DNA of 64,000 nt from Myxococcota bacterium (GCA_036338695.1 JAYZBQ010000076.1:930-64929); one strand, 5' to 3'; positions 6,030 through 22,030 are shown, counted from the stretch's first letter. Translations and numbers: made by a program. Notes: generated by a model not told the origin, from the letters alone.

Positions 6030-7208
6030 CTAACGCCTTTTGTGAGCCGGGATCGGGATGATCAGCTTTTGACCCAGGCGAAGGGTGGTGCGCGTGGTGA
6101 TGTTGTTGGCGCGTGCGATCTCAAGAACCTTAGCGCCCCAGCGCTTCGCAATCCCCGACAAGGTATCGCCTCGCCGGATCCGATAGGTCTGGATGAAGCG
6201 GTTGTCTTCAACAGGGAGCTTGGCGAGCTCATCGGCGCAGGTCTCGGGTGTCGCCTTGGGTAGTCGCAGATTGAAGGCCTTGCCGTACAGGTGTTTGGGG
6301 GGTGTGATGCCTTGCTTGAGCGTTGGGTTGAGCTGCCAGAGCGTGGCGCCATCGATGCCGCAGACTTGGGCTATCTTTTCGAGCGAGAGGGGACGCTCGA
6401 TCGGCATCAGCCGCGTCTCGATGACCTCGTCTGGGCTCGGCGGTCGAAAGCCATAATGTTCCGGTCTCTGCGCCAGGGTGGCGGCGGCGAGCAGCTTGGG
6501 CACGTAGTTGCGCGTCTCGGTCGGTAGCTCGGAGGAGATGGCCCAAAAGTCACGCTCTCCGGTGCGTGTCTGCGCTCGCCGCACGCGCCCGGGGCCGGCG
6601 TTGTAAGCTGCCCACGCGAGGTACCAGTCATCGAAGCGATCATGAAGCGCCAAGAGGTACCGCGCCGCCGCCCGGGTGGCTTGGTCAAGGTCGGCTCGCT
6701 CATCGACAAAATGACCGGTTTTGAGCCCAAAGGAGCGGGCGGTCGCAGGGATGAACTGCCAGACCCCTTGAGCGCCTGCTCGGGAGCGAGCGCGTGCGCG
6801 AAAACCCGACTCGATCATTGCCAGATAGACCAAGTCCCGCGGCGCGCCGACCTCCTCAAGGATGGGGCGAAGCTTTGGGATGAAGACCGCTGAGCGATCG
6901 AGCCAATGCTGAAAGGTGCGCCGGCCTCGCCCCGTGAAGAAGCGAATGTATGCCTCGACACGCGGGTTCGTGGTCCAGGGGATATCGAGCGCCGGCGGTG
7001 TCCCTGATGAGTGGCTCGAGAGCGCCTGGACCGGCCAGTGCGCCCCGCGCCCGATCGCCCTTTTGAGCTTCCAACCGCGCACCGGCTGGCTCTGGGCGAC
7101 GCTGCGGCGCGCCTCGTCGGCGAAGAAGGCGCGCTCCATGGCGCGCATCGAGACCATCTCATCGACCCCTGCGACAGCGCCGAGCACGATCCAGGTGGCG
7201 GCGATCAT
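6030..7208 (-). CDS. Lytic murein transglycosylase with C-terminal LysM domain (MltD-like)
   Basis: SLT catalytic region ...AMIESGFRARARSRAGAQGVWQFIPATARSFGL. C-terminal LysM: YRIRRGDTLSGIAKRWGAKVLEIARANNI. Confidence 0.75.
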   Translation of the reverse strand: MIAATWIVLGAVAGVDEMVSMRAMERAFFADEARRSVAQSQPVRGWKLKRAIGRGAHWPVQALSSHSSGTPPALDIPWTTNPRVEAYIRFFTGRGRRTFQHWLDRSAVFIPKLRPILEEVGAPRDLVYLAMIESGFRARARSRAGAQGVWQFIPATARSFGLKTGHFVDERADLDQATRAAARYLLALHDRFDDWYLAWAAYNAGPGRVRRAQTRTGERDFWAISSELPTETRNYVPKLLAAATLAQRPEHYGFRPPSPDEVIETRLMPIERPLSLEKIAQVCGIDGATLWQLNPTLKQGITPPKHLYGKAFNLRLPKATPETCADELAKLPVEDNRFIQTYRIRRGDTLSGIAKRWGAKVLEIARANNITTRTTLRLGQKLIIPIPAHKRR

Positions 7209-8659
7209 GGCGCCGCCTGATGGCCTGGCCCGAGGACGCGCTGGAGCCGGTCTTCATAGACAAAGGTGTTGGTGTGAGGAGGATGATGGCACTGGGTGCA
7301 GTCCTCGGCTGACACCTTGCGCTTGATCGGCCCCTTGCCTGCTTGAGCGATGTGCAGTGAGCCTGGCCCGTGGCAGCTCTCACAGCCCACGTTGACGCGC
7401 GCTCCGGCTTCGCTCACGCGGCAGAACCCGCCTGGCTGCTCAAAGCCTGCGCTGTGGCACCCCACGCAGGTGTAGTCGTAGGTGCGCCCTTTCTGCTCGA
7501 GCGTCGCCCAGGCTTTGGCGTGTGGGGTCTTCTTCCACAAGGCATAGGCTTCTTGGTGACAACCCTGACAGGCGACGCTGCCTACATACTGCGCTTGGTC
7601 TGGGGCGTCGGTTTGAGGACACTGACGCGTGCTCTCGAGCTGCTTGTTCAAGGTGCTGATCGCCCGGTGGTGTGATTGGATCGCTTGGTTCATCGTCTCG
7701 TTTTGAGCGATGCTTGAATCGAGCGGGACGCGCTGACCCGACAGCGAGCTGCCCTGTTCAGGAGGCTTGGGCAGAGGCGTCTCGAGCAGGCGTTTGCGCT
7801 GCGCCTTCGCCCGTTCTACCTGCGCGGTCCGCGCAGCGAGCAGCGCAGGTGGTTTTTGGCGTACTTTGGCGCGGTCGCGCTGCTTGACCAGCCCCTCGAT
7901 TCGAGCCTGCATCGCGTCGAGCGCAGCTTGCCGCTCGCCAGCGCCTTCAAGGCGGATCAACGAACCGCCTCGCCAGGTCAGGGTGACGTCGAGCAGCTTC
8001 TGACCCCGCTCGCCTCCTACTAGCGCATAGAGTCCTTCCGCGAGCTCGCTGATCGCCGGCTCTTCGTGGGGCTTGGACGGGATCACGAGGTCGACTCCAG
8101 CTGCTTGGAGCGCAGCAGCCTGCGCCTTGGCCTCCTTGAGGTCGCCGTCAAAGAGCATGACCACCGGTCTTTTCGGGTCGAGCTTTTGGGTGATGCGACC
8201 GCGAACGAATTGGATCCCTTGAGCGGTGCGCAGCGCGTCGCGCTCGAGCCAGGGCGTCTCGGTCACCGTGCGCAGCGCCTTCGCGTCGCGCTCAAGCGCC
8301 TCGTCGTCCTCTCCAAAGCCTGATATGACCAGGCCGAGACCGAGCAGTTGTCGCTGCAAAAACTCACCCGCCTTCCTGATCTGAGGGACCGAGCCTACGC
8401 TGAACTTACCGGGGCTGATCAGGTCGCCATGGGCGATCAAGACAGGGGTTTGCGCTGGGTCTTTGTGTTGGTCGAGGTAGGTGGCGAGCCGGGCCAGCCC
8501 ACCGAGCGGTTCGAGGCTGCAGCCGCAGGGCTCGAGCTCGCCTTGAAGTTGCGTGAGGATGAACAGGCGATAGTGACTCGGTTGCGGCTCCGAGCTGACT
8601 TTTGTCGACGAGCAGGACTGGACGACGGCCAGCCCGGTCAGTAGCCAAAGTGTGCGCAT
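7205..8659 (-). CDS. Multihaem c-type cytochrome lipoprotein (four CXXCH motifs, c554-like C-terminal domain) with a non-haem N-terminal domain and coiled coil
   Basis: CQGCH, CVGCH, CESCH and CTQCH sit in the last ~130 aa. Lipoprotein signal MRTLWLLTGLAVVQSCSS from the ATG at 8659 (the longer ORF to 8857 looks like run-on). The central region is Ala/Arg/Lys/Gln-rich and helical. Confidence 0.6.
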   Translation of the reverse strand: MRTLWLLTGLAVVQSCSSTKVSSEPQPSHYRLFILTQLQGELEPCGCSLEPLGGLARLATYLDQHKDPAQTPVLIAHGDLISPGKFSVGSVPQIRKAGEFLQRQLLGLGLVISGFGEDDEALERDAKALRTVTETPWLERDALRTAQGIQFVRGRITQKLDPKRPVVMLFDGDLKEAKAQAAALQAAGVDLVIPSKPHEEPAISELAEGLYALVGGERGQKLLDVTLTWRGGSLIRLEGAGERQAALDAMQARIEGLVKQRDRAKVRQKPPALLAARTAQVERAKAQRKRLLETPLPKPPEQGSSLSGQRVPLDSSIAQNETMNQAIQSHHRAISTLNKQLESTRQCPQTDAPDQAQYVGSVACQGCHQEAYALWKKTPHAKAWATLEQKGRTYDYTCVGCHSAGFEQPGGFCRVSEAGARVNVGCESCHGPGSLHIAQAGKGPIKRKVSAEDCTQCHHPPHTNTFVYEDRLQRVLGPGHQAAP

Positions 8660-8726
8660 ACGCGAAATCCAGCTCCTCGGTGTCTGCTCTGTGAACCCCT
8701 GAGCGCTTAAGCGAAAGAGGTCTACT

Positions 8727-9323
8727 TTGGAACCGCTTCCTCTCGCACTGACCGTCTTGTCCGCTCTGCTCGGTTCGATCCCCTTTGGTCTCATCCTGGC
8801 GAAATCCATGCTCGGCGTCGATCTCAAAGCGATGGGTTCGGGCAACATTGGCGCCACGAACGCCGCTCGAGCGGGCGGCGCAGGCTTTGGCGTGCTGATT
8901 CTTCTCCTCGATGCGCTTAAGGGTTTTGTCGCTCCATTTATTCTTCACCAGCTCGGCGCCACAGACCATTGGGTCGCTGCGGCCGGTCTGGCGGCTGTTC
9001 TCGGCCACTGCTACACGCCCTTTTTGGGGTGGCATGGCGGGAAGGGGGTGGCGACCAGCCTAGGGGTTATCTTCGCATTCGAGCCCTGGCTTGGTGGGGT
9101 CGGACTCGCCACCTATGCAGCGGTTCTAGCGCTCTTTCGTACCAGCGCGATCGGTAGCCTCGCCGGCACCGGCGTCTGCGTGGCGGTGGCGTGGGTTAGC
9201 CCGGCGTTCTCTGGTCGCCTTGCGGTTCAGGTGACATTGTCGGTGATCTGTGTCTTGATCGTTTGGCGACATCGAAGCAACCTAGCGGCGCTGAGTCAGA
9301 AATCGGATAGCGGATCGGTATGA
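8727..9323 (+). CDS. plsY: Glycerol-3-phosphate acyltransferase PlsY
   Basis: 198 aa polytopic membrane protein; GSGNIGATNAARAGG and the overall PlsY signature. Confidence 0.9.
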   Translation: MEPLPLALTVLSALLGSIPFGLILAKSMLGVDLKAMGSGNIGATNAARAGGAGFGVLILLLDALKGFVAPFILHQLGATDHWVAAAGLAAVLGHCYTPFLGWHGGKGVATSLGVIFAFEPWLGGVGLATYAAVLALFRTSAIGSLAGTGVCVAVAWVSPAFSGRLAVQVTLSVICVLIVWRHRSNLAALSQKSDSGSV

Positions 9324-10246
9324 GCGACGATTACAGCGACGAGACACGCATCCTCTCGACGGCGGAGTTCCGCATCGATGACCTCGTTGGAAAACCGGGG
9401 GAGCGCAGCGCGGTCTTGAGCGTTTTGCGGGGGCGACGGCGCGGCGCGACCTTTCAGATCGGCGGTGCGACCACCGTCCTTGGACGCGGCGAGCGCGCCG
9501 AGATCCGGCTCGATGACGACGGCGTCAGCAGGCGCCACGCTGAGCTCGTTCGGCTCGACGACGGCGCGTTGCAGTTGCGCGATTTGGGCAGCACCAACGG
9601 AACTTTTGTCAACGGCGAGCGGGTCGCCGAGCGCGTGCTCGAAGACGACGACCGCGTCGCGCTCGGGACGACCACTTTGCTCAAGTTTGAGCTGCACGAT
9701 GCCATGGAGATCAAGCTCAAGGCAGAGATGTATCAAAAGGCGACGCGCGATCAGCTCACAGGGATGTTCAACCGTCGCTATTGCTTCGAGCGTCTTCGAG
9801 AGGAATTCAGCTTCGCGCAGCGACACGGTCAGCCGCTCTCCGTGGTGATGTTCGACGTCGATCACTTCAAGCAGGTGAACGATACCTACGGCCACGCGGC
9901 GGGCGACGCCGTCCTCCAGCGCATCGGGCGGGTGGTCATGGAGCTGGTCCGCAACGAGGACGTGGTCTGCCGTTATGGCGGCGAAGAGTTCGTCTGTATT
10001 TTGCGCGGGCTGACGCTCGATCAAGGGCAGCTGTTCGCTGACCGCGTCCGGCGGACGATCGAGGCGCAGGTGATCGCGAGCGGTGAGCACGTCCTGCGCG
10101 TGACGGTATCGCTCGGCGTCGCGGCGTTGCGAGGGATGAATTTCTCCAACCCCGAAGAGATGATCAACGAAGCTGACGCCTACCTCTACGTCGCTAAAGA
10201 GGGCGGTCGAAATCAGGTCGCCTCGGCGCTCACCGCCACCTCATGA
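9320..10246 (+). CDS. FHA domain-containing diguanylate cyclase (GGDEF)
   Basis: N-terminal FHA (ATFQIGGATTVLGRGERAEIRLDDDGVSRRHAEL...GSTNGTFVNGERV). C-terminal GGDEF with intact RYGGEEF active-site motif. Overlaps plsY and dnaE by 4 nt each. Confidence 0.85.
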   Translation: MSDDYSDETRILSTAEFRIDDLVGKPGERSAVLSVLRGRRRGATFQIGGATTVLGRGERAEIRLDDDGVSRRHAELVRLDDGALQLRDLGSTNGTFVNGERVAERVLEDDDRVALGTTTLLKFELHDAMEIKLKAEMYQKATRDQLTGMFNRRYCFERLREEFSFAQRHGQPLSVVMFDVDHFKQVNDTYGHAAGDAVLQRIGRVVMELVRNEDVVCRYGGEEFVCILRGLTLDQGQLFADRVRRTIEAQVIASGEHVLRVTVSLGVAALRGMNFSNPEEMINEADAYLYVAKEGGRNQVASALTATS

Positions 10247-13200
10247 GTTTTGTCCACCTCAACGTCAAAACAGGCTTCTCGTTTCTTGAGGGGGCGCTCC
10301 CGCTCGAGCAGCTGTGTGACCGGGTTAAGGCGCTCGGGATGGACGCCGTTGCGGTCACCGATAAAGGGAACCTACACGGCGCCTACGAGTTCTATAAGCG
10401 AGCGAAAAAATCGGGTGTTAACCCGATCTTAGGGAGTGAGCTTCAGCTGCTTCCGGAGGGTGTGGCGATCGATGATCGCTCGACCCGCCATGACACCTAT
10501 GCGCTGACCGTGCTGGCGCGTAACGATACGGGCTGGCGCAACCTCAAAGAGCTCGTCTCCAAAGCCTCCCTTCAGGGCTACTATTACGTGCCGCGGATCG
10601 ACTGGGCGACGCTCAAAGAGCACGCCGAGGGTCTGATCGTGCTGTCCGGTGGTTTGGGGGGGATCATCTCGCGCACCTGGCATGGCTGGCACGGGCCGCG
10701 GTCGAAGCGGCGCCCCTCTTCAAAGCGCTTTGGCGCGCAAGCTGCTGCCGCAGCTCAGAAGCTCGCTGCGCTCTTTGATCCCGGTGACTTCTATCTCGAG
10801 TTTCAGGACACAGGGCTCCCCGAGGAGCCAGCCTACAATGAGTTTTTGCTCTCACTCGTCAACGAGCTTGGTCTACCGGGGGTGGCGACGAACAATTGTC
10901 ATTACCTGGACCAAGATGACGCGGAGGCGCATCGCTATTTGATGTGCATCCAGTACCGGACCACCATCGACAAGTTTGATGGCCCTGAGGTGAGCGGGCG
11001 GTACCTCAAAGATGATGACTCGATGCGCCGTGGTTGGTTTGCCGATCACCCCGAGCTCCTCGAAGCCAGCGGGCAGATCGCGCAGCGTTGTTCGGTGTCG
11101 ATGGAGCTCGGCGTCAATTACCTGCCGCCGTTTCCCTGCGCCGACGGTCGTAACGAGGAGGAGGAGCTGCGCCACAGCTCGCTCGAAGGCCTCGAGAAGC
11201 GGTTCGCTGAGCTCGAGGAGACAGGCGCCTACGCCTATGACAAGGCTGTGTATTTTGATCGCCTCGACCACGAGCTTGCGATCATCAATTCCATGGGCTT
11301 TCCAGGCTACTTCTTAATCGTTCAGGATTTTATCAACTGGGCGAAAGACCACTCGATTCGAGTCGGCCCGGGGCGGGGTTCAGGGGCTGGCTCCCTGGTC
11401 GCATGGGCGCTGCGCATCACCGACCTCGACCCGCTGCCGTATGACCTCCTATTTGAGCGCTTCCTCAACCCAGAGCGCGTCTCGATGCCCGACTTCGACG
11501 TCGACTTCTGCCAGGAGCGACGCGGCGAGGTGATCCAGTACGTCACCGAAAAGTACGGCGCTGATCGGGTCGGTCAGATTGCGACCTTTGCGCGCCTTGG
11601 CGGCAAGTCGGTGATCAAAGATGTCGCCTCGGTGCTCGATATGCCCTTTGCGCAGATCAACGAGATGACCCGTAATATTCCCGCGTTTCATGAGGGGTTA
11701 CCGGTGACGTTGACCCCGAAAATGCGTGACGTCGACGGCGTCTCGATCGTCGATGGGCGGCTTGTCGGGGATGCGAACAAGGTCGCGGACGCAAGGAAGT
11801 CATGGGGCCTTTTTGAGGTCTCGAGCGAGCTGCTCGAGCAGCTCAAAGCGGGCGGTAAGCTCAAGAAAGTGTTCGATATTTCGACGCGGCTTGAGGGGCT
11901 CTATCGCCAAGCCGGTACGCACGCAGGCGGGGTGCTGATCGGGCGCGACGTCCTCACCGAATACACGCCGGTTTTTTCAACCTCGAGCGGGGGCCAGGCG
12001 GCTCAGTTCAACATGGAGGGCGTTGAGGACGTCGGCTTGGTCAAGTTCGACTTCCTCGGGCTCAAAAACCTGGACATCATCACCTACGCAGAGGACCTGG
12101 TCAACGAGGAGGTCGAGCGAGCCAATTCAGGCGATGAAGCGCAGCGGGCGCAGCTGATCAAGCGCTTCCCGCATCTGCGAGGGTGCGACCCGAAGGAGCC
12201 CTTGCCCAAGCTCGACGTCGACCTCGTCCCGCTCGACCACGTCGAGCCCTACCAGCTGATCTCTTCAGGGGACACGAACGGTATTTTCCAGCTCGAGTCG
12301 GACGGCATGAAGTCGATGTTGGTCGAGCTCAAGCCTGACTGCTTTGAAGACATCGTCGCCGCCGTTGCGCTCTATCGACCCGGTCCGATGGATCAGATCC
12401 CAGACTACATCAAACGCAAGCACGGGCAGCTCGCCATCGAGTATCCGCACCCAGCCCTCGCAGAGGTTCTCAAGCCCACTTATGGGCATATGGTGTACCA
12501 AGAGCAGGTGATGCAAGCAGCGCAAATTATGGGCGGTTATACTCTTGGGAGCGCCGATATTTTGCGGCGTGCGATGGGCAAGAAGAAGCGCGAGGAGATG
12601 GAGAAGCAGCGGCTGATTTTTACGAAGGGCGCTGACGAGCTTCACAACCTCCCGAAAGCGAAAGCCGAAAAGATCTTCGACGTGATGGAGAAGTTCGCTG
12701 GCTACGGCTTTAACAAGAGCCACGCTGCCGCTTATGCGAAGATCGCCTACCAGACCGCCTATCTCAAGCGGTTCCATCCAGTGGCTTTTTACTGCGCTCA
12801 GGTGACCGTGCATCGCAACAGCACCGAGACGGTGACCAAGTACCTCCGAGAAGCGGGGGATAAAGGCATCACCATCTTGCCCCCGTGCGTCAACGCTTCC
12901 GCCTACGGCTTTCGACCGGAGGGGCAGCAGGCGATCCGATTTGGTCTGTGCGCGGTCAAGGGGGTCGGCGACGCCGTATTGACCCGTTTGTTCGCCGAGC
13001 AAAGCGCCGATAAGCCGTTTGTTGGCTTGCTTGAACTGGTCGAGCGCTGCGGTCCACGAGAGCTGCCGCGCAAGGCGGTCGAGCTCTTGATCGACGCCGG
13101 CGCGCTCGACTTTTGCGGCGCGTCGAGGCGACGCCTGATCAGTAGCCTCGACATGGTCTATCAGCGCGCAGGCAACACCTGCTCGGATCGTGAAGCGGGT

Positions 13201-14001
13201 CAGTTCAGCTTTTTCGAGATGGGGACGCTGGATGGTGGGACGGCTTCAGACCCAAGTGAGTGCTTGATCGAGACCCAGATTGAGTGGCCTGACCGGCTCC
13301 GATTGGCGCGTGAGCGGGCTGTGCTCGGGTTCTTCCTGTCTGGGCATCCCACGGCGCTGTACACGCGCGCATTCCGGAGCTTAACGACCTGCGCCTGCGG
13401 ACGCCTCGCCGAGCTCTGGGAGCCCGAGAAGGGGTGGGGAAACAAGCGCAAGACCGCAACCATCGGTGGGGTCATCGTCGGCCGGGACATTAAGAACATC
13501 GCAACGTACAGCGGCGGTCCCAAGGAAGACACCGTGATCCCACGGCGTGCGTTTTTGACGGTTGAGGACACCTCTGGGCAGGTCGAGGTCCGCCTCGAGC
13601 CCGAGATTTTTAGCCAGTTTGAGGAGCTGATCAAATCCGATGAACCGCTCGTCTTTTCCGGCAACCTTATGGCCCGTAAGTCGGGCGGCGACGAGGGCGA
13701 AGAGCAGCTCGAGGTGGGCTTGCGCGCCAACCAAGTGCACCGTGCATTTGAGGTTTTTGAGCAGCAGCGCGTCCCGCTCGTGGTTCACCTCGACCTCACG
13801 CGTCATACACCCACGGACATCGAAGGCCTTCGAACCCTTTGCGGTCGGTTTCCTGGAGGGCTCCCGCCGGAGTTTCGCGTCGTCGGTGACCACAGCCGGT
13901 TGCGTCTGCTCGCGGCGCGCAAGCTGAGCGTCGCCTGCGACTTTGAGCTGATGGACGGTGTCGAGGAGTTGCTCGGCAAAGGGTCGCTTAGGCTCGGTTA
14001 G
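10243..14001 (+). CDS. dnaE: DNA polymerase III alpha subunit DnaE
   Basis: 1252 aa with a PHP domain at the N-terminus (MSFVHLNVKTGFSFLEGA), the polymerase core (GPGRGSGAGSLVAWALRITDLDP...FDVDFC) and an OB fold. Confidence 0.95.
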   Translation: MSFVHLNVKTGFSFLEGALPLEQLCDRVKALGMDAVAVTDKGNLHGAYEFYKRAKKSGVNPILGSELQLLPEGVAIDDRSTRHDTYALTVLARNDTGWRNLKELVSKASLQGYYYVPRIDWATLKEHAEGLIVLSGGLGGIISRTWHGWHGPRSKRRPSSKRFGAQAAAAAQKLAALFDPGDFYLEFQDTGLPEEPAYNEFLLSLVNELGLPGVATNNCHYLDQDDAEAHRYLMCIQYRTTIDKFDGPEVSGRYLKDDDSMRRGWFADHPELLEASGQIAQRCSVSMELGVNYLPPFPCADGRNEEEELRHSSLEGLEKRFAELEETGAYAYDKAVYFDRLDHELAIINSMGFPGYFLIVQDFINWAKDHSIRVGPGRGSGAGSLVAWALRITDLDPLPYDLLFERFLNPERVSMPDFDVDFCQERRGEVIQYVTEKYGADRVGQIATFARLGGKSVIKDVASVLDMPFAQINEMTRNIPAFHEGLPVTLTPKMRDVDGVSIVDGRLVGDANKVADARKSWGLFEVSSELLEQLKAGGKLKKVFDISTRLEGLYRQAGTHAGGVLIGRDVLTEYTPVFSTSSGGQAAQFNMEGVEDVGLVKFDFLGLKNLDIITYAEDLVNEEVERANSGDEAQRAQLIKRFPHLRGCDPKEPLPKLDVDLVPLDHVEPYQLISSGDTNGIFQLESDGMKSMLVELKPDCFEDIVAAVALYRPGPMDQIPDYIKRKHGQLAIEYPHPALAEVLKPTYGHMVYQEQVMQAAQIMGGYTLGSADILRRAMGKKKREEMEKQRLIFTKGADELHNLPKAKAEKIFDVMEKFAGYGFNKSHAAAYAKIAYQTAYLKRFHPVAFYCAQVTVHRNSTETVTKYLREAGDKGITILPPCVNASAYGFRPEGQQAIRFGLCAVKGVGDAVLTRLFAEQSADKPFVGLLELVERCGPRELPRKAVELLIDAGALDFCGASRRRLISSLDMVYQRAGNTCSDREAGQFSFFEMGTLDGGTASDPSECLIETQIEWPDRLRLARERAVLGFFLSGHPTALYTRAFRSLTTCACGRLAELWEPEKGWGNKRKTATIGGVIVGRDIKNIATYSGGPKEDTVIPRRAFLTVEDTSGQVEVRLEPEIFSQFEELIKSDEPLVFSGNLMARKSGGDEGEEQLEVGLRANQVHRAFEVFEQQRVPLVVHLDLTRHTPTDIEGLRTLCGRFPGGLPPEFRVVGDHSRLRLLAARKLSVACDFELMDGVEELLGKGSLRLG

Positions 14002-14082
14002 TTATCGTATCGAGTCGATAAATTGATGCGCCGGCCGCTGCGCGGAGCGCGCGCGCATGGTACGCTCACGTCGCGAGGATGT

Positions 14083-17000
14083 ATGCGACGCTCGACATGG
14101 GTTCTAGTCCTGACGGCAGCCTGCCTGCCCGAGATGCCAGACCAGCCGGTTCAAGATGCCGGCGCGGTGATCGCCCCCTTTGACGCCGGCCGGACGGTTG
14201 CGCCGCAGCCTCCGCCTGTGCCCGACGCGGGGCCGCGAGACGTCGGCTTCGGTGAGCTCAGTCTGATCGGGTTGACCCCCAACGTTGGGCCGGCGACCGG
14301 CGGCACGCGCGTGCAACTGCGCGGCGAGGGCTTTCTACCGGATACGGTGGTCGAGCTCGGCGGTCAGCCGGTACGCGATGTCCTGGTGGTCTCGTCGCGG
14401 GCGCTCACGTTCTTTACACCTGCGCTCGAGCCTGGCGTCGCCGACTTGAGGGTGCAGAACGCCTTCGGGACGGCTGAGCTTGAGGCCGCGTTTACAGTGT
14501 TTCAGCCGCTTCAGCCACGTCGGCTGATCCCCTCTGAAGGCCCTCTTGAAGGTGGAGGGGTCGTCCGCTTAGAGGGTGAGGGGCTGTCCGCTGAGACCGT
14601 CGTGTTGATCGGTGGGCAACCACTTCTTGAGGTCCGGATGGAAGCGGGTGATCTCGTCGGAAAACTCCCAGCCGGCGCAGCGCCTGGCGCCGTGGATGTG
14701 CGCATCGCCGATGCGTTTGCGCAGGTGTTCTGGCGAGCCGGGTTTCAGTACCTTGCGCGTCCCTACATCGAGCGGATCGAGCCTCAGCGAGCTCGGCCGG
14801 GTCAAGCGACTGCGCTCGAGATCACAGGGTATGGTCTGTGCCCGGAGGCGACGGTGCGGGTCGGGGCGCAAGCCTGTCGTGCCGTCCAGGTTTCACCTGG
14901 CGCGCTGACCTGCTCGCTCACGACGCAGCAGGCTGAAGGGGCCTATCCGGTCGAGGTGAGCTGCCCGGGCGGTGTGGCGCAGGCGCGGCCGGGTCTGGTG
15001 GTGATGGCGGATGAGGGCGCTCCGGCGCTGCTCGCTGTTCGACCGGACCATGGACCACTGATCGGCGGTGGAACGGCGCTTTTGGTCGGGCGCGGCCTGG
15101 CTGGTCGAGAGCTGGTTTGGGACGGTCAGGTGCTCGTCGCTGCGGCTGAGACCGAGGAGGGTATTGAGCTGGTCGTGCCGATGCGTGAGCGCCCTGGGCG
15201 TGTTGACGTCTCGGTTGAGGGGGCGGGCGCGCTCGAAGGCGCTTATCATTACCGTGATGAGCTCATGCTGCGCGGCTTGGAGCCAGCGTCTGGGTCAGCC
15301 TTGGGCGGCACGACCGTCACGCTGTTTGGGCTTGGTTTTTGTGCTGATCCGGTCGTTCAGTTTGATGGCGTTGATCAAGAGATCCTCGAGACCTCAGCGC
15401 AGCAAATCAGGCTGCGGACGCGCCCGCACCGCGGCGGACGCGCTCACGTCCGGGTGCGCTGCGACGACCGCATCGTGAATCGCCATCGCGGCTACCTGTT
15501 CGAGGCGGAGCTTGGGTTTGTGGGGATCAGCCCGGTGCGTGGCGCGATCGCTGGCGGTACCGAAGTGTATGTCGTGGGTCAGGGCTTTGCGCGCGCGGGG
15601 CTCTCGGTCACTCTCGGTGGTCAGGTGATGCCGGAGGTGCGCGTGCTCTCCGATAGCCTTCTGCGCGCCGTGACGCCACCGGGTCAAAGCCTTGGCGCCG
15701 TCGACCTTCGCCTGAACATCGCCCAAGAGCAAGTGCTTGGTGCGGGCGCGTTTACCTACTATGACCCAGGCTTTCGCTATGGAGGAAGCCGCGGCGGAAC
15801 GCCGCAGGGGTCGATGAACGTGACGGTGCTCAACTCCTGGGGGCGTCTTGCGCCGATCGAGGGGGCGCAGGTGGTGGTCGGCGGGAGCAACAGCGAGGAC
15901 CGGATGACGGCGGTGACCGATGCGCGCGGTCAGGCGACCTTGAGCGGTCCGAGCTTGTTCGGGCCGCAGACAGTGACGGTGTACAAAGAGGGCTGCGATC
16001 GAGCGCGCAGCTTGGTCGATGTCGACTCGGCTGACGTCACCTTTTGGCTCGGCTGTATGCCGCCTCCGAGCGAAGGAGAGGGGGGCGGTACGCCGCCGCC
16101 TGCGCCGGAGCCGATGATCGTCTCAGGGCGCATCCTTGGCTTTGATAAGGCGCTCTTTGATCCCGGTCGTCTGGGTCCAAATCAGCGAGCTTTTGCGCAG
16201 GTTCACCTAACACAGAGCTCGCCGACGGGTGGCGGCAGGTGGGTGAACGGACGCGATTTCGTCTTCGAGGACGGCGGCGAATACCAGCTGGTCCTCGCGT
16301 CCGGTCGCTACACACTGGTCGCGGTCGCTGGCATCCACGACAGCCGAACCCAAGAAGTGATCGAGCTGACGCAACTCGGGTTTAGGCGCCAGGTGAGCGG
16401 CCCAGCGGGCGAGCGACTCGTCGACCAAGATATCGTGCTGAACTATCCGATGGACGCCACTTTTGGGGTGAGTCTTGGAGACCGAAGGCAGCCCCTGCCG
16501 TCGCTAGCGGGCGCCGATAGGATGCGGGTACGGGTGTCGCTGGACTTCGGCGGTGAGGGCTATTTTCCGCTCGCCGACGAGATGGCGCGCTCGTCCTTCT
16601 TGCTGCTGCGCGGGTTGCCGCGCGTGCCGGCGGACATGCTCTACATCAGCGGGGGGCTGGTGAGCGGTCAGGGCGGAGCCTCACCGTCGTCGACGATACG
16701 GACCCGCGGCAGCGGTCGGCTTGAGGGGGGGATCACGCTGGGGCCGCTGCTCCCGATCGCCGAGATGATCGCGCCGCGCCAAGACGGTGGCGTCTTGGTG
16801 GATCGGACCTTGCGCTGGAAGTTTGCGAACGGACCTGTTCAGCCCGCCTACGTGCTCATTGATATCGCTGATACACGCGGAAACAGCTGGGAGCTGATGG
16901 TGCGTGGCGGTCAGACCAAGCTGCGTCTGCCGGTGCTGCCGGACGATGAGGCAGGGCTCGGTCAAAGCGGATTGTATTATGCGCAGATCACCGCAGTCGC

Positions 17001-17106
17001 CAACCCGCGGTTTGACTTCGACAACTTCAGCTATCTGGATACCTGGTACGCCAGCTGGCAAGCGCTCAGTGAGCGAGCCATTCAGTTCCGGCTCGGCGCC
17101 CCTTGA
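14083..17106 (+). CDS. Large secreted IPT/TIG-repeat protein (lipoprotein)
   Basis: At least six repeats of the IPT/TIG pattern (GPATGGTRVQLRGEGF, GPLEGGGVVRLEGEGL, GPLIGGGTALLVGRGL, GSALGGTTVTLFGLGF, GAIAGGTEVYVVGQGF). Lipoprotein-like N-terminus MRRSTWVLVLTAAC from the ATG at 14083 (the ORF opens at 14023). C-terminal about 400 aa has no recognisable family. Confidence 0.6.
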   Translation: MRRSTWVLVLTAACLPEMPDQPVQDAGAVIAPFDAGRTVAPQPPPVPDAGPRDVGFGELSLIGLTPNVGPATGGTRVQLRGEGFLPDTVVELGGQPVRDVLVVSSRALTFFTPALEPGVADLRVQNAFGTAELEAAFTVFQPLQPRRLIPSEGPLEGGGVVRLEGEGLSAETVVLIGGQPLLEVRMEAGDLVGKLPAGAAPGAVDVRIADAFAQVFWRAGFQYLARPYIERIEPQRARPGQATALEITGYGLCPEATVRVGAQACRAVQVSPGALTCSLTTQQAEGAYPVEVSCPGGVAQARPGLVVMADEGAPALLAVRPDHGPLIGGGTALLVGRGLAGRELVWDGQVLVAAAETEEGIELVVPMRERPGRVDVSVEGAGALEGAYHYRDELMLRGLEPASGSALGGTTVTLFGLGFCADPVVQFDGVDQEILETSAQQIRLRTRPHRGGRAHVRVRCDDRIVNRHRGYLFEAELGFVGISPVRGAIAGGTEVYVVGQGFARAGLSVTLGGQVMPEVRVLSDSLLRAVTPPGQSLGAVDLRLNIAQEQVLGAGAFTYYDPGFRYGGSRGGTPQGSMNVTVLNSWGRLAPIEGAQVVVGGSNSEDRMTAVTDARGQATLSGPSLFGPQTVTVYKEGCDRARSLVDVDSADVTFWLGCMPPPSEGEGGGTPPPAPEPMIVSGRILGFDKALFDPGRLGPNQRAFAQVHLTQSSPTGGGRWVNGRDFVFEDGGEYQLVLASGRYTLVAVAGIHDSRTQEVIELTQLGFRRQVSGPAGERLVDQDIVLNYPMDATFGVSLGDRRQPLPSLAGADRMRVRVSLDFGGEGYFPLADEMARSSFLLLRGLPRVPADMLYISGGLVSGQGGASPSSTIRTRGSGRLEGGITLGPLLPIAEMIAPRQDGGVLVDRTLRWKFANGPVQPAYVLIDIADTRGNSWELMVRGGQTKLRLPVLPDDEAGLGQSGLYYAQITAVANPRFDFDNFSYLDTWYASWQALSERAIQFRLGAP

Positions 17107-18062
17107 GCTGCGGCGTCAAGGCGCCGCTGAGCTAAGGTGATGTACTGCGCTTCGAGCTCAAAACCGAGGTAGTTGCGACCGGTCTCGACCGCCGCCACAC
17201 CGGTTGATCCGGCGCCAAAGAAGGGGTCAAGGACCACGTCGTCTTGGTACGTGTAGAGCTCGATGAGGCGCTTGGGCAAGGCGACCGGAAAGGGCGCAGG
17301 GTGACCCACACGCTTTGCGCTTTCGGGGTTGATATCCCAGACGTCTAAAGTCGCCGCCATGAACTCTTCTTTGGAGATCGTGTTGTGGTGCGGCAGCCCA
17401 CGCTTGGCTCGTTTTTTCCGGCTAAGCGCCCTGTCAAATCGCCCTTTTGAGGCGATGACGACCCGCTCGGTGGTGTCCCTTAGGACCGGGTTCGCAGCGC
17501 TTTGAAACGAGCCCCATGCGCAGGAACCTGAAGCCCCGGCAGCCTTTCTCCAGAGCACCTCGCCTCGCAGCAAGAGCTTGAGCTCATCTTGTAGGATGCG
17601 CGTCACGTCCGCGCTCAAGCTTCGATAGGGCTTACGCCCCAGATTTGCGATGTTGACGGCGATGCGCCCGCCGGGCTCAAGGACGCGCGCGCACTCCGCA
17701 AAGACGTCACGTAGCAGCTTGAGATAGGCTAGATAGGTCGCTGGTACGGCGCCTTCGCCCAGCGCCATCTCGTACTCCTTGCCGACGAAATAGGGCGGAG
17801 AGGTCACCACCAACGCCACCGAGTTGTCCGCCAGCTGGCTCATGTCTCGCGCGTCAGCGTGCAGGATCTGGTTCAGCACGGGCGAAGGGTTGATGGTCTC
17901 GTCGCTGGAGAGAACGGGCGCTCGAAAACGTTCATAGAAAGCAGACGCATCGTGCCCTTCGCGTTTGCCGGTACCGAACGCTTTGGTCGCTGTGCTGCGA
18001 CGTTTGCTCCCGCTCATCGGTTCAAGCCTCCCGGTCGCCTCATAAGGGCGCAATTTCGTCAT
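17082..18062 (-). CDS. Beta-class DNA methyltransferase (N4-cytosine or N6-adenine)
   Basis: Motif IV VVTSPPYFVGKEYE precedes motif I DPFFGAGSTGVAAVETGRNYLGFELE, which is the beta-class order. SPPY is more common in N4C enzymes. Alternative start at the ATG at 18017. Confidence 0.8.
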   Translation of the reverse strand: MTKLRPYEATGRLEPMSGSKRRSTATKAFGTGKREGHDASAFYERFRAPVLSSDETINPSPVLNQILHADARDMSQLADNSVALVVTSPPYFVGKEYEMALGEGAVPATYLAYLKLLRDVFAECARVLEPGGRIAVNIANLGRKPYRSLSADVTRILQDELKLLLRGEVLWRKAAGASGSCAWGSFQSAANPVLRDTTERVVIASKGRFDRALSRKKRAKRGLPHHNTISKEEFMAATLDVWDINPESAKRVGHPAPFPVALPKRLIELYTYQDDVVLDPFFGAGSTGVAAVETGRNYLGFELEAQYITLAQRRLDAAAQGAPSRN

Positions 18063-18885
18063 CGCCGACCTGGATCGTCATCGGTCCGATACCCAAGCTC
18101 ACGCCGCCCTTCTCATGGCGTTTCTCGACGCGGCCGATCCGCCCAGCGAACAAGCCCGCCGTGATCCGTACTCGGTCGCCTTCTTGAAACCGCGACTTCG
18201 CCGACTCTTTACGCTCTGCTTTGTGCTCGGCGAGCGCGCCGCACAGATCATTCTCATGCGTCCACTTGAGCGCCTTGAAGAGCTCGCTGAGCCGAGCCAG
18301 GTCACCGCGGATGGTGTCAGGCAAGGCCTCTGAGTAGACGCTCGCTCGCCACCAGACGCACCAGCCGGCGCCGTAGTCCTCGGGCAAGACCTGATCAGCC
18401 CGCTCGCCTTCGGCTTGCGGTTCTTGGATCTGGCGACCGGCCACCGCATCAGCCAGCGGCTCGAGCAGCTCTTTGAGCGCCTCTCGGCCTTCGAAGGCCT
18501 CGAGAAAGGCCACGACATTTCGCCCATCGAGCTTCGCCTTACGGTGGAGGATAAGCCCCCACGTGAGCCCGCTTTGATCAATCTGAACGAAGCGGCTCAG
18601 GTGTTCGTGAAAGGGCAGGACGTCGAGCGCGAAGGGGCTGTTGAGGTCGATCTGAGCGCGCTGACCGTCGGCGCGGGTCGCTTGTGAGAACAGCACCATA
18701 TTCTTCACTTGGCGACGATTCGCGAGGCAGGGCTCCGCAGGGGTGCAGTCCCACTCGCCCTCGAGCGTTTGAGCGAATTCGAGCATGGCGGCTCGAAGAC
18801 TGCGCCGCTCAAGGGTGTAGGCTGCGCTGCGCTGCTTGTTGGGCGCAAACAGCGCCACGTGGTCCTCGCTCGGCTGCCAGGTCAT
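18040..18885 (-). CDS. Hypothetical protein with KOW-like C-terminal motif (GDRVRITAGLFAGRIGRVE), no recognised family
   Basis: 281 aa with normal coding GC. Its ATG overlaps the mltF stop as ATGA and its 3' end overlaps the methyltransferase start by 23 nt. The C-terminal 50 aa resemble a KOW/Tudor-like small barrel. Confidence 0.4.
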   Translation of the reverse strand: MTWQPSEDHVALFAPNKQRSAAYTLERRSLRAAMLEFAQTLEGEWDCTPAEPCLANRRQVKNMVLFSQATRADGQRAQIDLNSPFALDVLPFHEHLSRFVQIDQSGLTWGLILHRKAKLDGRNVVAFLEAFEGREALKELLEPLADAVAGRQIQEPQAEGERADQVLPEDYGAGWCVWWRASVYSEALPDTIRGDLARLSELFKALKWTHENDLCGALAEHKAERKESAKSRFQEGDRVRITAGLFAGRIGRVEKRHEKGGVSLGIGPMTIQVGDDEIAPL

Positions 18886-20273
18886 GGCCTCTCCGGTCCG
18901 CCATCTCGATCCACCAAGGATTGGGGTAAGATCTGGCTGTATTGTTCATACAGGTCGCTCACATGCTCCGCGTAGCGCGTGGCGACGAGCCCCTGACAGC
19001 TTCCATGTTTTGCGTCCTTTGAGAACTGCCGATGCGCTAAAAGAGGCAAGGTCAGGCTGACGCCCTGATCCCACACTTCATCATCGAGCCCTAGCTGCCG
19101 GGCGAGAATGCGCGCGTCGTCTAGGTGAGCGTGGCCTACGTTGTAGGAGGCCAGCGCGAACATGCGCTGATCATAAGGCGATTTGGCGCGCCGAAAACGC
19201 CTCATGAGCCGCCTGAGATAGCGCGCAGCGGCATAGCTTGAGGCTTTCGGATCGCTCGGGTCGTCTAGACCGATCGCCCGCGCCGTGGCGGGCATGAATT
19301 GGAACAGCCCTTGAGCGCCCACTCGGCTGGTGGCGAACGGGTCTTGAGCCGACTCGACCATCATCACCGCAGCCAGCAGGCGCCAGTCGATGCCGTAGCG
19401 TGATTGGGCTGCGCGTAGGTCCGGGTCCCAGCGCGTGATGCGCTTACTCAGGTCGGTGCGCACCCACGGCCGCGCCCTCATGCGCATCTGCGTAGGTGAG
19501 GCGAAGTAGCGGGCGTGCAGCGCCGCCCGAAGCTTGGGCCGAAAGCCGGACCGAAAGAAGGTCTCGAGCGCTGGTTTGAGCTGCGCATCGGCGCTGCGAT
19601 ACCACCACCGCACCGGTTTGGAGGTGCCCATCCCATGGGTGATCACGAACCGACCATCGAGGGCAATAAATGCCTCGGCGTGGCGTCGATTGACCGCCAC
19701 GGCGACCCCCTGATCGCGTGACGTTTTCGCCAGCGATTGCAGCAGCGCCCAGTCGGTGTTCGCTGCAACGATCTGTTGTCTGCAGGGCGGTGCGCACCAG
19801 CCGATGAGGTCGCGTATGGGGCTTGAGCCTGCCCGTACATGGACCGACCGGGTTGTGCCTTGGCGCCAGTTGACCAACACCGAGTCGCTGTGCGCATAGC
19901 TCGGCCCGGCGTTCCATCGCGGATGCCCCCCCCAAGGCTCAGCGGGCACCCATAAATCGATCTCGCCACGCTCGATGAGGTACTCGAGCTGCTCATCGTC
20001 CGTCACCACGCGCACCGAGATGCGCCGGTCCAAGGTCTTGGCGAAGCGACTCAACAGGTCGTACTCAAAGCCCCTGGGCCGACCGCGGTAGATGAAGTAA
20101 TCGGTCAGGCTTTTTCGCAAGGCGACCCTGAGCGCATTGTCTGATTCGTCCAGCAACCGCTCAACGCGCTCGATGGGCTCGGACGGCGTGGGGGTTGGGG
20201 CCGGCGCAGGTGTGCAGCTTGTGGCGCTTGTAAGAGCGAACGCAGTCAGGGTAGGCGCAGCTAGCTTGAGCAT
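18882..20273 (-). CDS. mltF: Membrane-bound lytic murein transglycosylase F-like (periplasmic solute-binding domain plus SLT domain)
   Basis: N-terminal amino-acid-binding-like domain (GFEYDLLSRFAKTLDRRISVRVVTDDEQLEYLIERGEIDLWV). SLT domain (LAAVMMVESAQDPFATSRVGAQGLFQFMPATARAIGL). Lipoprotein start MLKLAAPTLTAFALTSATSC at the ATG at 20273. Confidence 0.75.
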   Translation of the reverse strand: MLKLAAPTLTAFALTSATSCTPAPAPTPTPSEPIERVERLLDESDNALRVALRKSLTDYFIYRGRPRGFEYDLLSRFAKTLDRRISVRVVTDDEQLEYLIERGEIDLWVPAEPWGGHPRWNAGPSYAHSDSVLVNWRQGTTRSVHVRAGSSPIRDLIGWCAPPCRQQIVAANTDWALLQSLAKTSRDQGVAVAVNRRHAEAFIALDGRFVITHGMGTSKPVRWWYRSADAQLKPALETFFRSGFRPKLRAALHARYFASPTQMRMRARPWVRTDLSKRITRWDPDLRAAQSRYGIDWRLLAAVMMVESAQDPFATSRVGAQGLFQFMPATARAIGLDDPSDPKASSYAAARYLRRLMRRFRRAKSPYDQRMFALASYNVGHAHLDDARILARQLGLDDEVWDQGVSLTLPLLAHRQFSKDAKHGSCQGLVATRYAEHVSDLYEQYSQILPQSLVDRDGGPERP

Positions 20274-20302
20274 GTTAGCGCCTCTCCAAGAAAGCGATAA
20301 AG

Positions 20303-22030
20303 ATGGACAACCAAACATTTCGGTCGATCTGGGGTGTTGCGTTTAGCTTATTCCTGAGCGCTTGCACTAGTGTGCCTCTCAATTCATCGGCGCCGGATGG
20401 GGCACCTCAAGCTGATCCGGCTGTCTCGGTTGATCCGGCGCCTGGTCGCGCCAGCGACCCGAGCGCCCCGACGACCCCAGCGGTTGAGCTGGTCGTCAAG
20501 CCCTCGGATGCGCCGACGCCTCGCCCACCCGCCAAGCTCGATGAGCGCTGGCGCACGTTGATGGAGGGCGACCTGACGGCGCTGGTCGATGCGTTGGATC
20601 AAGCCGACCCATCAACGCTTGAGCTTTTGGCGGCGCAGCCGCCGAGCGAGGGGCAGCAGGTGGCGCAACTGCGGCTTGCGATGATTCAAGCGCACAGCGG
20701 TCTACCCAGCGCGCTCCCTGCGCGCGTCCCAGAGCAATTCGCCGGCAAGCTCGACCAATTACGGGCGATGCAGGCTCAGCTCAACCAGTCGCGACCGCGG
20801 CGTATCGGCCTACTTTTGCCCAGCGATCGCGCCTGGGGTGACGTGCTCGAGAAGGCCTTTCGTTTTGGCTTGGGTGAGTCCTCCGTTGAGGTCGTCGTGG
20901 CGAGCTCAGCCGAGCCGGAAGCGGGAATGCGTGAGCTGGTTTTGAACCAAGGAGCGACCCTGGTGATCTGCGGTCCGTTTCTGAAACGAGCGAAGCGCGC
21001 AGCCGTGGTAGCCCAGCGCTATGGTGTGCCGATCGTGAGCCTGGCGCGCGAGCCTGGCATGGCGTCGCTCGGCGATCGGGTCTTTCAAGTCGGTTTGACC
21101 AACGAAGCGCAGATCGATCGGTTGGTCGAAGGCGCCATGGAGCAGCGAAACTACAAGCGCTTCGCCATCTTGTTTCCGCGTACCGCCTCGGGGTGGGGCG
21201 CGGCCAAGAGGTTTCGGGCGCAGGTTGAGGCGCGCGGCGGTGAGGTCACCATCAGCCAGCCTTACCCGCGCGGTGAGACCACCTTTACGCCGTTGATCAG
21301 CGGTATGGTGGGTCGGGATGCGGCGTCGTTGAACGCGAACCCGAAGTACCGAAAGTGCGTCTCTGAGATCGCTGATGAGCTCAAGGGGCTTCGGCGCAAG
21401 AGGCGCGTGGAGTCCTGCCGTGACCGGACCCCGCCCAAGGTCGAGTTTGAGGCCATCTTTGTGCCGGATTCGGTCGCCTCTGTGCGGCAGATTATGCCCT
21501 TCATCGAGCTCGCTGACATGGTGCCCAACCTCAACGAGCGCATGCTCTGGAAGACGCGTAAGGCGACTGAAAACAAAGAGTTAATCGCCACGCCGATCCT
21601 GGGGATGCGCCAACTCAATTCGCATTACTTCGCCAGCCGAAGCCGAACGGATGTTGAGGGTAGCCTCTTCGTGGATGCGTACTACCCGTATGACGGCGAG
21701 CGGGCGCTACCCGGACAGTTTACCCGCGCCTTTCGTAAGCTGAACAACCGCCCCCCGGACCTGCTCGAGACCCTAGCCTACGACGTCGGGTTGCTCGTCA
21801 GACACCTCGATGAAAACGACCAGCTCAGCAGCCGCTCGGTGGTTCTGAGCGCGCTGAGCCAGCTCAAGGACTTTGAGGCCGTGACGGGGCCGTGGGCGAT
21901 GAGCGCAGAGGGTCAGGTGCAGCGACCCTTATACCTGCTGAGCATCCACAAGCGACGGATCCTCACCGAGGATGACCGGGTGCAGGCGCTGAGCGAGAAG
22001 CGCTCGAAGCGCCGGCGTAGGGGGCGTTAG
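20303..22030 (+). CDS. LpoA-like lipoprotein: helical N-terminal region plus type-I periplasmic-binding-protein domain
   Basis: Lipobox FSLFLSAC. C-terminal LivK/PBP1-like fold (RIGLLLPSDRAWGD...GATLVICGPFL...VPIVSLAR...FAILFPRTASGWG). This architecture is typical of penicillin-binding-protein activator LpoA. Confidence 0.5.
   Translation: MDNQTFRSIWGVAFSLFLSACTSVPLNSSAPDGAPQADPAVSVDPAPGRASDPSAPTTPAVELVVKPSDAPTPRPPAKLDERWRTLMEGDLTALVDALDQADPSTLELLAAQPPSEGQQVAQLRLAMIQAHSGLPSALPARVPEQFAGKLDQLRAMQAQLNQSRPRRIGLLLPSDRAWGDVLEKAFRFGLGESSVEVVVASSAEPEAGMRELVLNQGATLVICGPFLKRAKRAAVVAQRYGVPIVSLAREPGMASLGDRVFQVGLTNEAQIDRLVEGAMEQRNYKRFAILFPRTASGWGAAKRFRAQVEARGGEVTISQPYPRGETTFTPLISGMVGRDAASLNANPKYRKCVSEIADELKGLRRKRRVESCRDRTPPKVEFEAIFVPDSVASVRQIMPFIELADMVPNLNERMLWKTRKATENKELIATPILGMRQLNSHYFASRSRTDVEGSLFVDAYYPYDGERALPGQFTRAFRKLNNRPPDLLETLAYDVGLLVRHLDENDQLSSRSVVLSALSQLKDFEAVTGPWAMSAEGQVQRPLYLLSIHKRRILTEDDRVQALSEKRSKRRRRGR

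Follow-up and report, generated by a model that had tools for sequence, protein, structure and literature searches.

In a 64,000-nucleotide stretch of DNA from a Myxococcota bacterium (GCA_036338695.1, JAYZBQ010000076.1:930-64929; hereafter the window, whose first letter is position 1 of all coordinates), three successive open reading frames (ORFs) lie on the minus strand: a DNA methyltransferase (17082-18062, 326 amino acids), a protein that we call X (18040-18885, 281 amino acids) and a MltF-like lytic transglycosylase (18882-20318, 478 amino acids). We consider it quite likely that they represent an orphan methyltransferase of the N4-methylcytosine (m4C) type situated below a coupled, clade-specific mltF-X pair, and that X is a KOW protein and not a nuclease. 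The locus is an ordinary one: its gene order is peculiar to one lineage and does not constitute a cassette for restriction-modification or defence. The original prediction for this DNA had named the same three ORFs and assigned the methyltransferase to the beta-class SPPY...DPFFGAGST methyltransferases; ORF calls, Pfam and motif order confirm both statements.

The stop codon of mltF and the start codon of X share the tetranucleotide ATGA (18882-18885, minus strand). An identical 4-nucleotide overlap is found in L001, L003, L005, L006 and L007, that is, in each of the five related loci whose gene calls are intact (the loci of relatives, designated by L numbers, were judged on contigs and not on whole genomes). 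The overlap, already described in the original prediction, is therefore real, and indicates from sequence that mltF and X are translationally coupled.

The second junction had been described as a 23-nucleotide overlap that couples X to the methyltransferase in the same manner. This overlap is very probably an artefact of choosing the longest ORF, the methyltransferase starting instead at the internal ATG at 18017. It is present only if translation begins at the first ATG (18062). The homologues, which range from 84% to 64% identity, all start at the residue equivalent to Met16 of the window protein (ATG 18017), and the 15-codon extension (18018-18062, minus strand) has no counterpart in any of them. 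The sequence GGGAGG (18027-18032) lies 9 nucleotides upstream of ATG 18017. In the protein's own 90% cluster most gene calls give 311 amino acids, a single NCBI record giving 326. In relatives the spacer between X and the methyltransferase is longer, 67 nucleotides in L003 and L005 and 54 in L006. It is on these homologue starts, the GGGAGG site, the 311-residue calls and the longer spacers that we hold the overlap to be probably unreal. In L003 the frame from the upstream ATG meets a stop codon, and the spacer in the window lineage has undergone a deletion of about 45 nucleotides after which the upstream ATG happened to remain in frame.

The likely layout, then, is the stop codon of X, a 22-nucleotide gap with a ribosome-binding site, and the start of the methyltransferase; both gap and GGGAGG fall within the 15-codon extension, which probably does not belong to the translated enzyme. 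Such a gap with its own ribosome-binding site fits a shared transcript and does not fit translational coupling of X and the methyltransferase. A scan for promoters and terminators returned nothing informative between the genes and no terminator-like site in the 22-nucleotide gap, so that the methyltransferase is probably co-transcribed and co-expressed with mltF-X.

Next, we compared the locus with its relatives. The original prediction had left to such comparison whether the order mltF-X-methyltransferase is conserved, and the answer is divided. In L003, L004, L005 and L006, where X is 69-77% identical, all three genes are present; a convergent gene for a TIG-domain protein and dnaE follow in L003-L005 as they do in the window, and the L006 contig breaks off within the methyltransferase gene. 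In L001, L002 and L007, where X is about 66% identical, mltF-X is followed by a HTH_17/MerR-like gene and no methyltransferase is present at the site. Beyond the HTH_17 gene, L001 and L007 continue with astA, an aldehyde dehydrogenase gene and lon, and L001 further with dtd, gidB and parAB. The upstream side, comprising genes for a periplasmic-binding lipoprotein, a 176-amino-acid protein, nadE and an adenosyltransferase, is syntenic in both groups. Since gene content on the X side splits between the clades while the mltF side stays syntenic, the methyltransferase coincides in position with a rearrangement breakpoint. What is conserved as a unit is mltF-X and not the trio, and the position of X behind mltF is peculiar to this clade.

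Two further observations concern these loci. A perfect hairpin, GCTTGTCGGGC-AGATAA-GCCCGACAAGC, is found in L001 shortly past the stop codon of X (about 8865-8895); in this methyltransferase-less clade the mltF-X operon probably ends there. L004 (ERZ28548078 NODE_270) has a coverage of 0.57 and frameshifts throughout, all its genes including X and the methyltransferase being broken up; the cause lies in the assembly and not in pseudogenisation.

The synteny data bear directly on the idea that mltF, X and the methyltransferase form one functional module, be it a novel system of defence or regulation or a cell-cycle methyltransferase of the CcrM kind that is tied to cell-wall remodelling, both of which the original prediction had entertained. 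The trio is limited to one small sub-clade, with the synteny break falling precisely between X and the methyltransferase, and its parts occur independently elsewhere: in the sister clade mltF-X persists with no methyltransferase at this site, more distant X genes have no SLT gene beside them, and the methyltransferase family is found in unrelated neighbourhoods without either partner. Neither mltF nor X has a match among defence models, and the resemblance to CcrM fails on the score, motif and domain evidence given below. These facts outweigh the shared strand, the tiny gaps and the lack of a terminator, which point to probably one transcript, as well as the conservation of the trio in four related loci and the envelope theme added by a conserved divergent lipoprotein with a periplasmic-binding fold. 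We regard a single module as very unlikely, and the proposed wiring of the methyltransferase to cell-wall remodelling is not supported.

Protein X (18040-18885, minus strand) has no signal peptide, and sequence searches detect in it a KOW motif only (residues 235-260). An AlphaFold model built from 19 homologues is confident (predicted local distance difference test 84, predicted template modelling score 0.73). According to this model, the N-terminal domain (residues about 1-215, 18241-18885) shares the YktB/DUF1054 fold and the C-terminal part (residues about 235-281, 18043-18183) forms a KOW, or SH3-like, barrel. At the level of sequence no link to DUF1054 or DUF2461 appeared: none of 26 family members gave a Pfam match at E<=1, and a profile of the N-terminal domain alone found no YktB chain in the PDB at E<=10. 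The relationship between X and DUF1054, as modelled, is one of fold only. Throughout the wider X family, residues S20, R27, P52, N56, D120, N123, W208 and D213 do not vary. Judged by its modelled architecture, X is most likely an adaptor or regulator associated with nucleic acid, the ribosome or RNA polymerase, and not an enzyme acting on DNA ends. The yktB gene encodes a cytoplasmic protein (PMC10903944), and a YktB/DUF1054 homologue of Listeria is penicillin-inducible (PMC3534079), which is a weak lead only.

These results also bear on the reading of the original prediction that makes X a novel restriction endonuclease and the gene downstream its cognate methyltransferase, the two constituting a type II restriction-modification pair. 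A match of X to Hpy99I covers just 49 residues of the SH3-like barrel of Hpy99I, corresponding to the KOW part of X, and the remaining 215 residues adopt, in the model, the YktB/DUF1054 fold and show none of the known nuclease folds. PADLOC returned no match for X. The two genes do not travel together on the contigs compared: mltF-X is kept without a methyltransferase at the site in L001, L002 and L007, elsewhere in Myxococcota genes of the X family are not flanked by a methyltransferase, and the methyltransferase family occurs elsewhere without an X-like neighbour. No cognate endonuclease was found beside the methyltransferase, one neighbour being X with its non-nuclease fold and the other a convergent gene for a TIG-domain surface protein; the locus also has no island markers. 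We therefore rejected X as a nuclease, on its fold, the lack of a defence-model match and its phyletic independence from the methyltransferase, and consider the pair extremely improbable.

An exhaustive search with a profile of the X family retrieved 172 representatives at E<=1e-3, most of them 300-325 amino acids long and spanning both domains. Named members are proteins from metagenome-assembled genomes (MAGs) labelled Myxococcales, Polyangia, Myxococcota, Deltaproteobacteria or 'Proteobacteria', annotated automatically as 'KOW motif-containing protein' or 'NusG' (Joint Genome Institute). Matches to X are few, 3 in 185,579 species genomes and 20 protein clusters among 5.8 billion proteins, and the encoding loci come from the marine Myxococcota MAGs JBDQPD01 and JAPKCE01 and from one single-cell assembly labelled Hydrogenedens. 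Distant family members on large contigs of other Myxococcota (L012, L013 and L014, the gene beginning at 6001) are preceded by an ADH_N or enoyl-CoA hydratase (ECH) gene; downstream follow a convergent Ser/Thr kinase, a PilZ protein (L012, L014) or second kinase (L013), and RelA/SpoT. A fourth distant context differs from these three, and in none of the four is there an SLT gene or a methyltransferase nearby. The wider X family is independent of METHYLTRANSFERASE and of mltF.

The methyltransferase (17082-18017, minus strand, 311 amino acids from its probable true start) was identified by PF01555, PADLOC and alignment with homologues. Its ORF matches Pfam N6_N4_Mtase (PF01555) with 136 bits against a gathering cut-off of 26.7. 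Motif IV, TSPPYF, occupies residues 87-92 and motif I, DPFFGAGST, residues 279-287 of the long ORF. Motif IV before motif I is the beta-class order, and the protein has the features of beta-class N6-adenine/N4-cytosine methyltransferases. The best PADLOC model is MTase_II PDLC03350 (4e-83, full length), and the best relative with a solved structure is 2zie (TTHA0409 of Thermus thermophilus, E 2e-28). SPPY in motif IV is a hallmark of N4-cytosine methyltransferases, the corresponding motif of CcrM being DPPY (PMC10406627, PMC6712171). From the SPPY of motif IV, with its serine, which is invariant throughout the family, we infer the target base; the motif suggests that the enzyme forms N4-methylcytosine in DNA.

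Membership of CcrM was rejected: NCBIfam NF050803 gives 62.3 bits against a cut-off of 830, the match being limited to residues 252-319, motif IV reads SPPY and not DPPY, and the C-terminal domain by which CcrM binds the non-target strand is absent, the protein ending about 25 residues past motif I. YhdJ was rejected as well, its NCBIfam equivalog model being missed by a wide margin. The suggestion of an orphan methyltransferase, possibly of cell-cycle type, thus survives in its first half, no nuclease being adjacent, and not in its second.

We described the methyltransferase family from its 120 best matches among 5.8 billion proteins. These are 66-99% identical to the window enzyme and about 300-340 amino acids long, with a few longer fusions. 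Named members belong to the cultured Actinobacteria bacterium IMCC26256, to Acidimicrobiia, Pseudomonadota and Myxococcales, and one UniRef cluster is labelled 'cytosine-N(4)-specific'. In an alignment of 15 sequences mean column identity is 72% and more than 100 columns are invariant, including TSPPYF, HPAPFP, DPF-G-G and a family-specific N-terminal segment, FG-G-RE-HD-S-FY-RF. Pairwise identity within the family is 61-75% irrespective of the phylum label (Actinomycetota, Pseudomonadota or Myxococcota). Within the clade, the window enzyme is 82-83% identical to its orthologues in L003, L005 and L006, the values for DnaE, X and mltF being 86-88%, 75-77% and 68-70%, respectively. This sequence conservation indicates that purifying selection acts to maintain the methyltransferase.

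In four of five unrelated contexts (L008, L009, L016 and L019) the methyltransferase stands alone among metabolic and housekeeping genes. In the fifth (L010/L011), an unknown ORF of 335 amino acids (L010 6931-7938 and L011 2396-3403, both on the plus strand) starts 1 nucleotide after a homologue with 69% identity and contains 'LPVD...VSCK', reminiscent of the PD-(D/E)xK motif. It has no Pfam, PDB or homologue match and a marginal PADLOC match only. This ORF and an unknown 289-residue neighbour in L008 show no relation to X or to one another, and neither matched a known family or a PDB entry. On the 2-Mb contig of L008, from an unrelated genome, the methyltransferase homologue also convergently overlaps a gene for a 593-amino-acid protein (6905-8686, minus strand) with two stretches of the uracil-DNA-glycosylase superfamily.

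The fifth context gives some weight to the alternative that the window enzyme is a remnant or an immunising copy, whose nuclease has been lost or lies elsewhere and which would shield the host against restriction of the same specificity without any regulatory role. That the best PADLOC model, matched at full length with 4e-83, is a methyltransferase family of type II restriction-modification systems agrees with it, as do the PD...SxK-like motif beside one family member and the under-representation of GGCC and CGCG in the window. However, the family is unusually conserved: its members retain 61-75% identity from phylum to phylum and share more than 100 invariant columns, and within the clade conservation is nearly at the level of DnaE; four of the five unrelated contexts have no candidate nuclease, and the shortage of 4-mers is assignable to no single cause. 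The unusually high conservation means that a maintained host function fits better than a decaying remnant, and we give the remnant a real but minor chance.

Across the 64-kb window, GGCC (observed/expected 0.47, z -10.9) and CGCG (0.64, z -11.6) are the most under-represented 4-mer palindromes, and TCGA and GCGC are over-represented. We rejected palindrome avoidance as a clue to the specificity of the enzyme, because the shortage of GGCC and CGCG can be attributed to no single cause, the methyltransferase included.

Signs of mobility were looked for both in the enzyme and around it. Searches of plasmids, phages and IMG/VR found no relative of the methyltransferase above 45% identity, the best being 35% in plasmids, 35% in phages and 45% in IMG/VR, and the matches on viral contigs are devoid of the family's N-terminal segment. 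On these low identities a phage or plasmid origin was rejected. No tRNA, flanking repeats, Rfam elements or mobile-element genes were found. The methyltransferase gene has a GC content of 61.4%, and 72.1% at third codon positions, its neighbours having 60-66% and 73-76%, so its composition is native and the locus shows no anomaly. With housekeeping genes as neighbours, a mobile island was rejected, in agreement with the original prediction, which had reported no island markers.

Taken together, the evidence points to a locus in the core chromosome of an uncultured marine Myxococcota bacterium where one minus-strand string of genes would yield three functionally separate products. The mltF product would be exported and cut the glycan strands of peptidoglycan. 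X, coupled to mltF through ATGA, would bind nucleic acid or some part of the apparatus for transcription or translation. The methyltransferase would make N4-methylcytosine at a short specific motif of the host chromosome, with no partner nuclease. Because of its position at the synteny breakpoint, it would be a neighbour of mltF-X and not a member of one unit with them.

Several points weigh against this interpretation. The function ascribed to X is read from fold alone, and the YktB/DUF1054 fold has no known activity. SPPY is a strong predictor of N4-cytosine methylation, not an absolute one. The probable co-expression of the methyltransferase with mltF-X may leave room for a functional link between them. 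The 335-residue ORF of L010/L011 could be a nuclease, in which case some members of the family may be parts of restriction-modification pairs. Orphan status, too, was judged on contigs; a cognate nuclease may reside elsewhere in the genome, and L001 and L007 may possess a copy of the methyltransferase at another place in theirs.

A bolder proposal, which we consider unlikely, is that the methyltransferases constitute an undescribed, cross-phylum family of persistent solitary m4C enzymes and that X, independently, founds a family of regulators combining the YktB fold with KOW. The first part has a certain background. Persistent orphan type II m4C methyltransferases are known from archaea, where groups HG10-HG21 modify GTAC, AGCT, CGCG or GGCC (PMC10609329), and LomA of Leptospira is an orphan 4mC methyltransferase (PMC7708080). 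Methyltransferases of marine MAGs are mostly orphans, and CGCG methylation has been reported for every marine Acidimicrobiia MAG (PMC8919816). The family described here is common in Acidimicrobiia. It could write a widespread, as yet unassigned epigenetic mark in marine bacteria, for which CGCG methylation of Acidimicrobiia (PMC8919816) is a candidate. As regards the second part, the X family may connect envelope or stringent-response signalling with the apparatus of transcription or translation.

The analysis also carries a correction: an unknown ORF beside a methyltransferase does not amount to a restriction-modification system here, and the apparent overlap that had suggested coupling very probably arose from the choice of the longest ORF. 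What is left are modest curiosities, namely an uncharacterised X family and the conservation of a methyltransferase across phyla. Both are of some use. A chromosomal, solitary and unusually conserved methyltransferase family of aquatic bacteria is a lead for assigning a methylation motif in metaepigenomic data, and the X family adds a new domain partner to the functionless DUF1054 fold, together with two conserved neighbourhoods, one with mltF and the other with Ser/Thr kinase and RelA.

The third ORF of the string, counted from its longest form to 20318, encodes a MltF-like lytic transglycosylase of 463 amino acids if read from the signal-peptide start (18882-20273, minus strand). It has a Pfam SLT domain (residues 302-402, 6e-23) and matches the NCBIfam model of MltF (PRK10859 / NF008112) with 2e-55, residues 47-460 aligning with positions 31-450 of 483. 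The score of 188 bits is below the equivalog cut-off of 354. The C-terminal SLT domain contains MVESAQDP, with the catalytic E-S, as well as GLFQFM and SYNVG, and the N-terminus (MLKLAAP..., start 20273) is hydrophobic and ends in Cys, constituting an export signal. The protein has the two-module architecture of MltF, with an N-terminal module resembling a binding protein, a C-terminal SLT domain with catalytic Glu, and an export signal; Pfam did not detect the SBP_bac_3 module in the N-terminal part.

Among its neighbours the window contains dnaE, nadE and genes for a PduO-type adenosyltransferase, an MMPL transporter and an OmpA-family protein. Convergent on the methyltransferase lies the gene for the TIG-domain protein (14023-17106, plus strand), a secreted protein of 1027 amino acids with IPT/TIG, 'choice-of-anchor Z' repeat and CarboxypepD_reg domains; the 3' ends of the two genes overlap by 25 nucleotides. 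Divergent from the mltF-like gene is that for a 575-amino-acid lipoprotein with an LSAC lipobox and a Peripla_BP_6 domain (20303-22030, plus strand). The starts of these two genes are about 29 nucleotides apart, their pairing is syntenic in all related loci, and the lipoprotein might be a LpoA-like envelope partner. Farther away, a gene with FHA and GGDEF (diguanylate cyclase) domains (9320-10246, plus strand) and dnaE (10243-14001, plus strand) share a 4-nucleotide stop/start overlap of the ATGA type, which ties a cyclic di-GMP signalling protein to the alpha subunit of the replicative polymerase.

Compared with known systems, the window methyltransferase resembles in kind the persistent orphan m4C enzymes, HG10-HG21 of archaea and LomA of Leptospira. 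It shares with them the single chromosomal gene, the lack of an adjacent nuclease, conservation within lineages and SPPY-type amino-methyltransferase chemistry, and their role, epigenetic or protective, is itself presumed. It differs from them in that its m4C activity is a prediction and that its family spans several bacterial phyla (61-75% identity) and not one lineage. TTHA0409 (2zie), a putative beta-class DNA methylase, aligns with window residues 53-301 and has TSPPY, HPAPFP and DPF-G-G in common with it; its score of 103 bits compares with 470-690 bits for members of the family, and the N-terminal FG-G-RE-HD-S-FY-RF segment is missing. CcrM, the cell-cycle-regulated adenine methyltransferase of Alphaproteobacteria, likewise has the beta-class fold and motif order and is solitary, but carries DPPY and an extra C-terminal DNA-binding domain.

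The transglycosylase resembles Escherichia coli MltF, the membrane-bound lytic murein transglycosylase F, in its near full-length alignment to the model, the catalytic E-S and the export signal; unlike E. coli MltF, it appears to be coupled to a downstream gene whose product has no signal peptide. YktB/DUF1054 of Bacillus subtilis (UPF0637; 2a8e and 3mqz, of 205 and 210 residues) lacks the additional C-terminal barrel of X. With NusG, RfaH and Spt5, on the other hand, X shares precisely the C-terminal KOW barrel and not the NGN domain, TIGR00922 matching it in the KOW region only, with 16 bits against a cut-off of 135.7.

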